Shown piece by piece: positions 21,733-22,790 of a stretch of DNA of 33,510 nt. The first letter of the stretch is position 1. Every line of letters starts with the position of its first letter. The stretch lies in the IMG/VR virus record IMGVR_UViG_2703718823_000008; one strand, given 5' to 3'. Below the pieces are notes generated by a model that was not told the DNA's origin, ran no database searches, and saw only the letters and a list, made by a program, of their open reading frames with translations. The position numbers were made by a program, and so were the translations under genes. This DNA comes from a virus (Duplodnaviria; Heunggongvirae; Uroviricota; Caudoviricetes).

Positions 21733-22790
21733 ATGAACGTGAACTGTCCATTATCCGTGCGCTGGGTGAAGAATTTTCCGCGGTGCTGGCGGATTTACAG
21801 CGCACATTTGAGGAGAAAATAGCCGCGCAGGCACAAACGTTTGAAGAAAAACTGGCTTCCCTGTCTGTGGTATTACAGAAGTGCGTGACGGGCGATGATG
21901 TGCGTCCGATGCTTGAACAGATAGTGAAGGAGGCGGTAAGCCATATTCCTGTTCCGCGTGACGGTCGTGACTACGATCCGGAAGTACTGCAGAAGGCGGT
22001 GAATGATGCGGTCGCAAATATTCCGCAGCCGGCGGACGGTAAAAGTCTCACCCCGGATGATNNGCGTCCGATGCTTGAACAGATGGTGAAAGAGGCGCTA
22101 AGCCATATCCCTGTTCCGCGTGACGGTCGTGACTACGATCCGGAAGTACTGCAGAAGGCGGTGAATGATGCGGTCGCAAATATTCCGCAGCCGGCAGACG
22201 GTAAAAGTCTCACCCCGGATGATNNGCGTCCGATGCTTGAACAGATGGTGAAGGAGGCGGTAAGCCATATTCCTGTTCCGCGTGATGGTCGTGACTATGA
22301 TCCCGATGTTCTGCAGAAGGCTGTTCTGGATGCGGTGAGTGCCCTGCCGGCTCCGCAGGACGGGCGTGATGCCACGGCACTGGAAATACTCCCCGCCATT
22401 GACGATCAAAAATCCTTTCCCCGGGGCACGTATGCCACACACCTGGGCGGACTCTGGCGGGCGTATGAAAAAACGCACGGGATGCGGGGATGGGAATGTC
22501 TGGTTGACGGGGTGGCGGATATTGACGTCAGCATGACGGGTGAACGGTTGTTCTCTGTGGTGGTCCGGCAGAGCAGTGGCCAGCGTACGGAAAAAACATT
22601 TTCCCTGCCGGTGATGCTCTACCGCGGTGTGTTCAGAGCCGGTGAAACCTACCACCCCGGCGATACGGTGACGTGGGGCGGCTCGCTGTGGCACAGCAAC
22701 AGTATGACCGGTGATAAACCCGGAGAAGCTCATTCATCAGGCTGGACCCTGGCTGCAAAACGTGGGCGGGATGCTGGAGGCGGAAAATGA
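21729..22790 (+). CDS. Head-module protein with three tandem about 54-aa repeats (function unknown; possibly decoration or scaffold-related)
   Basis: 353-aa ORF; repeats RPMLEQ-VKEA-SHIPVPRDGRDYDPEVLQKAVNDAVANIPQPADGKSLTPDD; two NN dinucleotides at equivalent repeat positions. Confidence 0.7.
   Translation: MNERELSIIRALGEEFSAVLADLQRTFEEKIAAQAQTFEEKLASLSVVLQKCVTGDDVRPMLEQIVKEAVSHIPVPRDGRDYDPEVLQKAVNDAVANIPQPADGKSLTPDDXRPMLEQMVKEALSHIPVPRDGRDYDPEVLQKAVNDAVANIPQPADGKSLTPDDXRPMLEQMVKEAVSHIPVPRDGRDYDPDVLQKAVLDAVSALPAPQDGRDATALEILPAIDDQKSFPRGTYATHLGGLWRAYEKTHGMRGWECLVDGVADIDVSMTGERLFSVVVRQSSGQRTEKTFSLPVMLYRGVFRAGETYHPGDTVTWGGSLWHSNSMTGDKPGEAHSSGWTLAAKRGRDAGGGK
21897..22340 (+). repeat. Tandem 162-bp in-frame repeats (about 2.7 copies) inside the CDS
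   Basis: Near-identical 162-bp periodicity; NN at 22062-22063 and 22224-22225 are exactly 162 bp apart. Confidence 0.8.

Follow-up and report, generated by a model that had tools for sequence, protein, structure and literature searches.

Introduction

The head fibre protein gp8.5 of phage phi29 has a stalk of helix-turn-helix repeats, the base of which is anchored to the head, according to the published account (Xiang & Rossmann 2011, PMC3064346, cited in PMC12796354). We compare with this and other described systems a gene found in a stretch of 33,510 nucleotides, IMG/VR virus record IMGVR_UViG_2703718823_000008 (Duplodnaviria; Heunggongvirae; Uroviricota; Caudoviricetes), which is called the window throughout and is a lambdoid Escherichia coli prophage of the Shiga toxin-producing E. 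coli (STEC) type. The gene, an open reading frame (ORF) of 353 amino acids (aa) at 21729-22790 on the + strand, starts at the very end of the portal gene and contains an array of 162-bp tandem repeats, in which two pairs of bases were left uncalled (NN). The explanation that we consider probable as a whole is that the array is genuine, that the uncalled bases were left by the assembler, that the ORF represents a gene in its own right with coupling to the portal gene, that the number of repeat units varies among relatives, and that the product is a fibre-like protein.

Like gp8.5, the window protein would be an accessory capsid-associated fibre with repeated helical stalk modules. The two differ in that gp8.5 is not known to have a CBM5/12 knob, and in that its gene adjoins a capsid gene and not a portal gene; gp8.5 is also trimeric and capsid-attached, whereas the window protein is known here from its sequence and a monomer model. 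No sequence or fold match was found between gp8.5 and the repeat protein, and we regard gp8.5 as probably the closest functional analogue, a non-homologous one.

The CBM5/12 modules themselves (the ChBD of S. griseus ChiC, 2d49, and S. marcescens ChiB) have the fold and the Y..GD.V.W.G..W...W pattern in common with the C-terminal end of the window protein; they differ in that the window module belongs to a putative phage stalk and not to an enzyme. Collagen-like phage fibres (labelled 'Collagen triple helix repeat' in BFVD) bear the same knob family behind a repetitive, length-variable stalk, which in the window protein is made of helices and PxPxDG linkers instead of Gly-X-Y. SPP1 gp12 is a fibre or decoration protein of this collagen-like kind with a distal binding domain. 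The minor head proteins SPP1 gp7 and Mu gpF are encoded by portal-adjacent genes, which are sometimes fused to the portal gene. The repeat gene is a positional analogue of these, as it lies directly after the portal gene and undergoes natural portal fusions, but it differs in architecture and shows no homology to them (no match to Pfam Phage_Mu_F, PF04233, at E <= 1 in the window ORF). A last comparison concerns the collapse of repeats in short-read de Bruijn assembly. The locus is similar to such cases in that Ns stand where unique k-mer context ends and many contigs end in the gene, and dissimilar in that the copy number assembled here agrees with that of a complete genome.

The repeat array and the uncalled bases

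Tandem Repeats Finder detected an array with a period of 162 bp at 21894-22321 (2.6 copies, 94% matches, no indels, score 758), besides a weak 75-nt period. This degree of repetition is far above chance. The period corresponds to 54 codons and is in frame with the 353-aa ORF in the ORF list. In register, unit 1 spans 21894-22055 (aa 56-109), unit 2 spans 22056-22217 (aa 110-163) and the terminal unit 3 spans 22218-22379 (aa 164-217), all on the + strand. Units 1 and 2 are identical at 155 of 160 called bases, unit 2 having five diagnostic differences of its own, while unit 3 matches over the first ~68 nt and is diverged over its 3' two-thirds (121-124 matches in 160). Each 54-aa unit comprises two half-units, consisting of an IPxPxDG linker and a helix of 12-13 aa in the AlphaFold2 model. 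An earlier note, made from the letters of the window, had described three in-frame repeats of 54 aa (162 bp) and two NN pairs exactly 162 bp apart at the equivalent codon of units 2 and 3; the array and its register over 21894-22379 bear out the former, and the positions 22062-63 and 22224-25 the latter.

Only three runs of letters other than A, C, G and T occur in the whole window, namely NN at 5978-79, 22062-63 and 22224-25. The two in the array occupy positions 1-2 of a codon for which unit 1 has GTG (Val). Once GT is inserted at both sites, an exact stretch of 56 nt is common to the boundaries of units 1/2 and 2/3 (22035-22090 and 22197-22252, both on the + strand), of which the NN pair is the exact centre in either copy; 27 identical nt lie on each side of each pair, followed by a mismatch on both sides. 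The equivalent site in unit 1, where the left context turns unique after 6 nt, was called. As each NN pair is located at the exact midpoint of a 56-nt boundary repeat, the array Ns are an artefact of a k-mer-limited assembler, and reflect neither heterogeneity nor biology. An assembler of this kind would have extended k-1 = 27 nt into the exact repeat from both unique sides, and the two middle bases would have stayed out of reach.

We used E. coli STEC2018-607 (L001), a complete genome, for comparison. From position 5980 on, the window is 99.94% identical to this genome over an aligned block of 27.5 kb, the differences being 14 substitution positions (four of them Ns) and one 2-bp indel. The genome shows no difference in 765 bp of flanking sequence, carries exactly three units and has GT at both N sites, and both array NN pairs stand for exactly 2 nt in perfect register with it. 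In 80 parsed loci (the window, STEC2018-607 and 78 IMG/VR relatives), 255 of 258 called repeat units have GTG as the codon at the N site and the other three have ATG; therefore, the Ns are not at a variable position. The missing bases at both sites are almost certainly GT (Val), and the true number of units at the locus is most likely three.

The third NN pair (5978-5979, no strand) stands in place of ~113-119 bp of the relatives; these additional bases were found in all 30 complete E. coli genomes having both flanks. It is preceded by a terminator T-run, and the last few bases on its left disagree with the complete genomes. This pair looks like an assembly join behind which sequence is hidden, or else like a contig end with a deletion, and, as it hides ~113-119 bp, NN appears to mark joins in this record.

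A separate gene after the portal gene

The portal gene (20368-21732, + strand) encodes 454 aa matching Pfam Phage_portal (E = 8e-82, positions 2-321 of 321) and TIGR01537 portal_HK97 (positions 2-343 of 343, 352 bits). Read directly from the sequence, its TGA stop codon is overlapped by the ATG of the repeat ORF in an ATGA at 21729-21732 (+ strand), 11 nt upstream of which lies a putative Shine-Dalgarno sequence, AGGGGG (21712-21717, + strand). The repeat ORF, which belongs to PHROG 1289 and the C-terminal part of PHROG 2271 and can be called a candidate fibre-like accessory protein, has no match to the portal family PF04860 or to any NCBIfam model, TIGR01537 included.

We compared this arrangement with 26 distantly related loci in species-representative genomes, ranging from Enterobacterales (several genera) to an alphaproteobacterium and including Pseudomonas, Marinobacter, Pseudoduganella, Haliea and Mycoplana. 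The contigs of 24 of these loci reach the portal gene and 20 extend farther upstream. All 24 have the repeat-family gene as a separate ORF (195-556 aa) after the portal gene, with an overlapping start preceded by a Shine-Dalgarno sequence (AGAGGA or GAGAAGGAG). The overlap is ATGA in all the Enterobacterales relatives; in Pseudomonas and related genera, the start is TTG or GTG with an overlap of 11-14 nt, and over all these loci the starts other than ATGA are TTG, GTG or ATG overlapping by 7-14 nt. A fused protease-capsid gene precedes the portal gene in 20 of 20 loci that extend far enough, and a gp6-like connector gene follows the repeat-family gene in 24 of 26, so that the gene keeps its place between the two in a widespread head module of the HK97-like kind. 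Because the distant loci possess an equivalent Shine-Dalgarno sequence and overlapping start, AGGGGG most likely serves the repeat gene. At the sequence level, the ATGA overlap and AGGGGG, in a design kept across relatives, are those of a translationally coupled pair, and we predict that the repeat ORF is expressed by translational coupling to the portal gene.

The G5 run within AGGGGG (21713-21717) is the site of a G5/G6 polymorphism. G5, as in the window, gives the 454-aa portal protein followed by the repeat ORF from its own ATG, and G6 gives a single fused 'portal' ORF of ~860 aa; adding one G to the run in the window generates a single ORF of 807 aa with the junction FRGDSEKMNERE of the fused homologues. 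Among 84 parsed loci, 57 carry G5 and 27 carry G6. Essentially all of the latter belong to a single E. coli clade, in which G5 has been regained twice in recent times (L032 and L079; no differences in the 765-bp flank). Although the G5 loci have diverged, the repeat ORF is intact in 55 of the 57. The split and the fused form are both represented among phages known as infectious particles: BP-4795 is split with five units, and 2851 is fused with four, its 'portal' product being 859 aa long. Lys8385Vzw is split and has one unit, and homologue P0246 (1237 aa) represents an independent in-frame fusion to the portal. These comparisons indicate that the repeat ORF is a gene of its own and not a broken portal gene, with the split form as the ancestral one and the fused allele as a derived 1-nt insertion.

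Two alternative accounts of the frame change were considered and rejected. The A6 run at 21724-29 was ruled out as a frame-switch site by the alignment with fused homologues, which places the difference in the G-run. A phase-variable G tract or programmed -1 frameshifting as the principal explanation was ruled out by the Shine-Dalgarno sequences and overlapping starts of the distant loci, the near-confinement of G6 to one clade and the count of only two recent switches.

The PGAP pipeline labels the portal and repeat ORFs jointly 'phage portal protein, frameshifted', PHROG 2271 ('portal', 859 positions) covers both ORFs, and most database homologues are 'portal protein' entries with PF04860 and the repeats in one frame. 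The 'portal' names of PHROG 1289, PHROG 2271 and the GenBank entries derive from fused alleles. The earlier note had called the product a head-module protein, which is right and yet imprecise, since the gene is a separate, portal-coupled one that is often misannotated as a portal or frameshifted portal.

Two further observations concern the fused form. Pfam PF28083.1 is precomputed on many of the fused homologues (P0001 and others). The plaque-forming phage phi330 (vB_EcoS_phi330, PV189401.1; L108) has a junction of the G6 type and five units at 2400-3910, and its Sanger record contains three frame breaks over the portal end and the repeat gene, which would be either sequencing errors or signs of a dispensable gene.

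Variation in the number of units

Arrays of the E. coli relatives contain one (1 locus), three (25), four (43), five (9) or seven (2) units, and four more are disrupted. Loci whose 765-bp flanks are identical (L010, L019, L071 and L077), or differ at 0-1 positions, hold three, four, five or seven units, and the clade of the window itself comprises arrays of three, four and five (L002, L036 and L070). Neighbouring internal units of the longer arrays (L071, L077 and L079) are 0-1 nt apart, whereas the units at either end of the array are distinct. Identical flanks, near-identical internal units and distinct end units together indicate, on sequence comparison, that internal units were recently duplicated or lost through unequal recombination or slippage. 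Among complete genomes and phage records there are arrays of one, two, three, four and five units, the two-unit array being that of a complete O157:H7 genome; as the same length classes occur in complete genomes, the variation is not merely a short-read artefact. The locus is thus an in-frame variable-number tandem repeat (VNTR), and the variation in repeat number that the earlier note had suggested does exist among relatives, from one to seven units.

Architecture of the repeat protein

An exhaustive HMMER search recovered 5,357 representative clusters of the family at E <= 1e-3. Most members stand alone as proteins of 250-600 aa, in which 1-9 repeat stretches were matched. We modelled the window protein with AlphaFold2 as a monomer from an alignment of 26 sequences. 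The N-terminal segment of ~55 aa (21729-21893, + strand) is one long helix (residues 3-51) with a predicted local distance difference test score (pLDDT) of ~90, and is a putative anchor or oligomerisation element. The stalk contains six strongly amphipathic helices of 12-17 residues with extended IPxPxDG linkers between them, and the C-terminus is formed by a beta-rich knob (22380-22787, + strand; aa 218-353; phrog_16748), residues 215-345 of which were modelled with pLDDT >= 95.

The last ~50 aa of the knob adopt a fold of the CBM5/12 chitin-binding type in the model, with a Foldseek probability of 1.0 and root-mean-square deviations of 1.1-2.9 Å (2d49, 1.5-2.0 Å over 45-47 aa; 2rts, 1.9-2.1 Å; 7cb1, 1.1 Å over 45 aa). 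The three-dimensional fold is that of CBM5/12 in a module with pLDDT of at least 90, and W, Y and H positions are conserved in it. Homologue P0225 passes the Pfam CBM_5_12 cutoff with 28.6 bits, and P0121, P0151 and P0246 reach 22-25 bits. The rest of the knob has no confident PDB counterpart; a domain-only model left the fold of the first beta-subdomain without a PDB match at E <= 1e-3. A sequence search against PDB returned only chance-level matches to designed helical repeats.

The top-ranked structural neighbours are phage tail-fibre or receptor-binding chains (9rkv, 8fqc and 8kec), and the viral structure library gave collagen-repeat fibre proteins along with proteins of the CBM5/12 or ChiC-BD kind. 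The knob also matches tail-fibre PHROGs, and homologues P0225 and P0151 have a collagen triple-helix stalk ahead of the same knob. The window ORF itself has no Collagen match, so that it is not a collagen-like fibre protein in the strict sense.

Neighbouring genes

The repeat gene is followed by a gp6-like head-tail connector (Ad1) gene (22787-23113, + strand; Pfam Phage_connect_1, phrog_40), the start of which overlaps the stop of the repeat ORF. Upstream of the portal gene lies a fusion of prohead protease (Peptidase_S78) and major capsid protein (18219-20156, + strand; 645-aa ORF), and this capsid-before-portal order is kept in all distant relatives whose contig reaches that far.

Farther downstream, the major tail subunit ORF (24324-25040, + strand) has a C-terminal Ig-like part and is labelled 'immunoglobulin domain-containing protein' in phage 2851; this part may be a second module of the surface-adhesion type in the same virion. 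In the tail module, an ORF of 364 aa (29581-30675, + strand) is located between a tail-protein gene and the gene for minor tail protein L. By approximate offset, given the one 2-bp indel, it corresponds to a gene labelled 'porin OmpC' in the near-identical genome. OmpC is the receptor of the related long-tailed Shiga toxin (Stx) phage phi330 (PMC12502783), so that the 364-aa ORF could be a receptor-related moron. The window also has a CA insertion at 9414-9415 relative to STEC2018-607, which is intergenic there and lies downstream of a DNA-methyltransferase pseudogene.

Discussion

The repeat gene probably encodes a fibre-like accessory virion protein. In the mechanism we propose, the N-terminal helix of ~50 aa would anchor or oligomerise the protein at or near the portal vertex, and the amphipathic helices and IPxPxDG linkers would make up a stalk, the number of units determining its length. 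The C-terminal beta knob with its CBM5/12-type module would bind a glycan, and unequal recombination between near-identical units would tune the reach of this knob. Coupled translation and tolerated fusions, both read from sequence, argue for a probable physical association with the portal vertex, while the knob type in our model and the homologues with collagen stalks favour a fibre that would be exposed.

Several points weigh against this explanation. The k-mer size of ~28 was deduced from the geometry of the Ns alone, and the assembly graph implied by the Ns fits u1-(u2)n-u3, that is, additional copies resembling unit 2. The window ORF misses the cutoff of Pfam CBM_5_12 (PF02839), with 14.2 against 26.2 bits (E = 0.047). 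Heptad analysis of the N-terminal helix found no clear register, and the stalk was modelled at low confidence (pLDDT 50-65) and as a monomer only; low values are expected there, as an oligomeric fibre would have been modelled as a monomer. Furthermore, the C-termini of portal proteins are inside the capsid in solved portals. As the viable fusions join the repeat protein to this C-terminus, they argue for an internal location and suit an external glycan-binding fibre poorly. A literature search found no description of this protein or of its repeat, and no virion proteomics, microscopy or binding data for it. Mass-spectrometry data of the phi330 virion do exist (PRIDE PXD061229), from which the repeat protein was not reported; the supplement of the phi330 paper gives virion mass spectrometry only for the short-tailed phages.

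The uncalled bases themselves admit two other readings. The earlier note had likened the pattern to that of a collapsed or ambiguously resolved tandem repeat, the true copy number of which may differ from the assembly. If so, each NN would conceal at least one extra 162-bp copy resembling unit 2, and the true array would be longer than three units. The NN at 5978 does conceal ~113-119 bp, the 56-nt exact repeat leaves the graph u1-(u2)n-u3 possible, relatives with 4-7 units have identical adjacent copies, and short-read assemblies often break in this gene, many matches coming from contigs of 1.6-3 kb. In a complete-level genome whose flanks are identical, however, the number of units is exactly three, and the array NNs are exactly 2 nt long in register with it, with unit 2 bearing five diagnostic differences of its own. 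Collapse is hence decidedly unlikely in our judgement. What stands of the earlier claim is that the repeat made the assembly ambiguous, as the midpoints of the 56-nt repeats reveal, and that the graph cannot fix the number of unit-2-like copies; what is not supported is an actual misassembly, given the three units and GT of STEC2018-607. Real heterogeneity at the N codon, caused by a mixed phage population or by reads from paralogous prophages, is highly unlikely. STEC genomes have a median of five places matching this gene, and a few units of relatives do read ATG. Against this, the dominance of GTG in the relatives gives no sign of heterogeneity, and a hot spot of polymorphism between paralogous prophages is rejected on this ground as the origin of the Ns. 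Heterogeneity would also not put two adjacent Ns at the exact centre of the 56-nt repeat in both units, and another NN is found at an unrelated join (5978-79). The array Ns are best read as what the assembler could not reach.

The relationship of the repeat ORF to the portal gene raises two more alternatives. A frameshift could have disrupted the portal gene, leaving the ORF as its 3' part, i.e., a pseudogene, or the ORF could be joined to the portal by programmed -1 frameshifting on the G-run. This accords with the PGAP label, with the 807-aa ORF restored by a single inserted G and with the fused alleles common in E. coli (27 of 84 loci, with that of phage 2851 among the fused forms), and, judging from the sequence, tRNA-Gly would find perfect pairing again after slipping by -1 on G-GGG. 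Nevertheless, we think it very unlikely, as (i) the form is split in every distant genus examined, where the gene has a Shine-Dalgarno sequence and start codon of its own and a conserved slippery motif is absent, (ii) the ORF is intact in nearly all G5 loci, (iii) the portal ORF is complete by TIGR01537, and (iv) the fused alleles are essentially one E. coli clade and BP-4795 is split. The window lacks an X XXY YYZ heptamer at the run (AGGGGGA), and other genera have AGAGGA there. Possible, if doubtful, is that the product is an internal head protein bound to the portal, whose repeat number would govern its reach into the capsid from the portal crown; the portal barrel of P22 would then be a further positional analogue. 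The position of the gene directly downstream of the portal gene with coupled translation, the viable in-frame fusions to the portal C-terminus (phage 2851 and P0246) and the long N-terminal helix, which could lengthen the crown, are in keeping with an internal protein. Knobs of this type otherwise sit at the distal tips of tail fibres or collagen-like fibres, the fold is a carbohydrate-binding one, and there is no Pfam Phage_Mu_F or DNA-binding signal, all of which speaks against it. Fused alleles could moreover yield free protein from their retained Shine-Dalgarno sequence and ATG, or through trimming by the prohead protease, either of which could reconcile the internal and exposed views. The tolerance of fusions may mean that the protein is inside the capsid on the portal crown, or that it is released during maturation or ejection.

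Returning to the fibre-like protein that we prefer, we raise a broader proposal that we regard as rather unlikely in its full form. In HK97-like temperate phages, the long-tailed Stx phages among them, the repeat protein would be a hitherto unrecognised virion component attached to the portal vertex, with a length-tunable stalk, a knob of the chitin- or peptidoglycan-binding type and tolerance of covalent fusion to the portal C-terminus, and the 162-bp VNTR would serve evolution as a fast ruler of its reach.

The observation that started this work is itself largely ordinary, being a genuine VNTR together with a deterministic assembly artefact, with the copy number corroborated. In the N pattern, k-mer-limited assembly of a repeat has a clean signature that can be checked and should not be taken as polymorphism, and the 162-bp VNTR is one cause of the fragmentation of STEC prophages in short-read assemblies. 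The analysis adds a geometric proof of the artefact, a correction of the annotation and a large uncharacterised family of portal-coupled, putatively fibre-like proteins with a rapidly varying stalk in Stx-type phages. Among 5,426 complete E. coli genomes, 1,246 carry the repeat gene, which is routinely called 'phage portal protein, frameshifted' or 'portal protein'; the widely applied 'frameshifted portal' label is wrong for the split form. The repeat array could also act as a typing marker of prophages. If the fibre model is true, long-tailed Stx-converting phages and related temperate phages would bear a glycan-binding appendage, the length of which is altered very fast by unequal recombination, with possible effects on adsorption, on environmental or mucosal retention, or on assembly.

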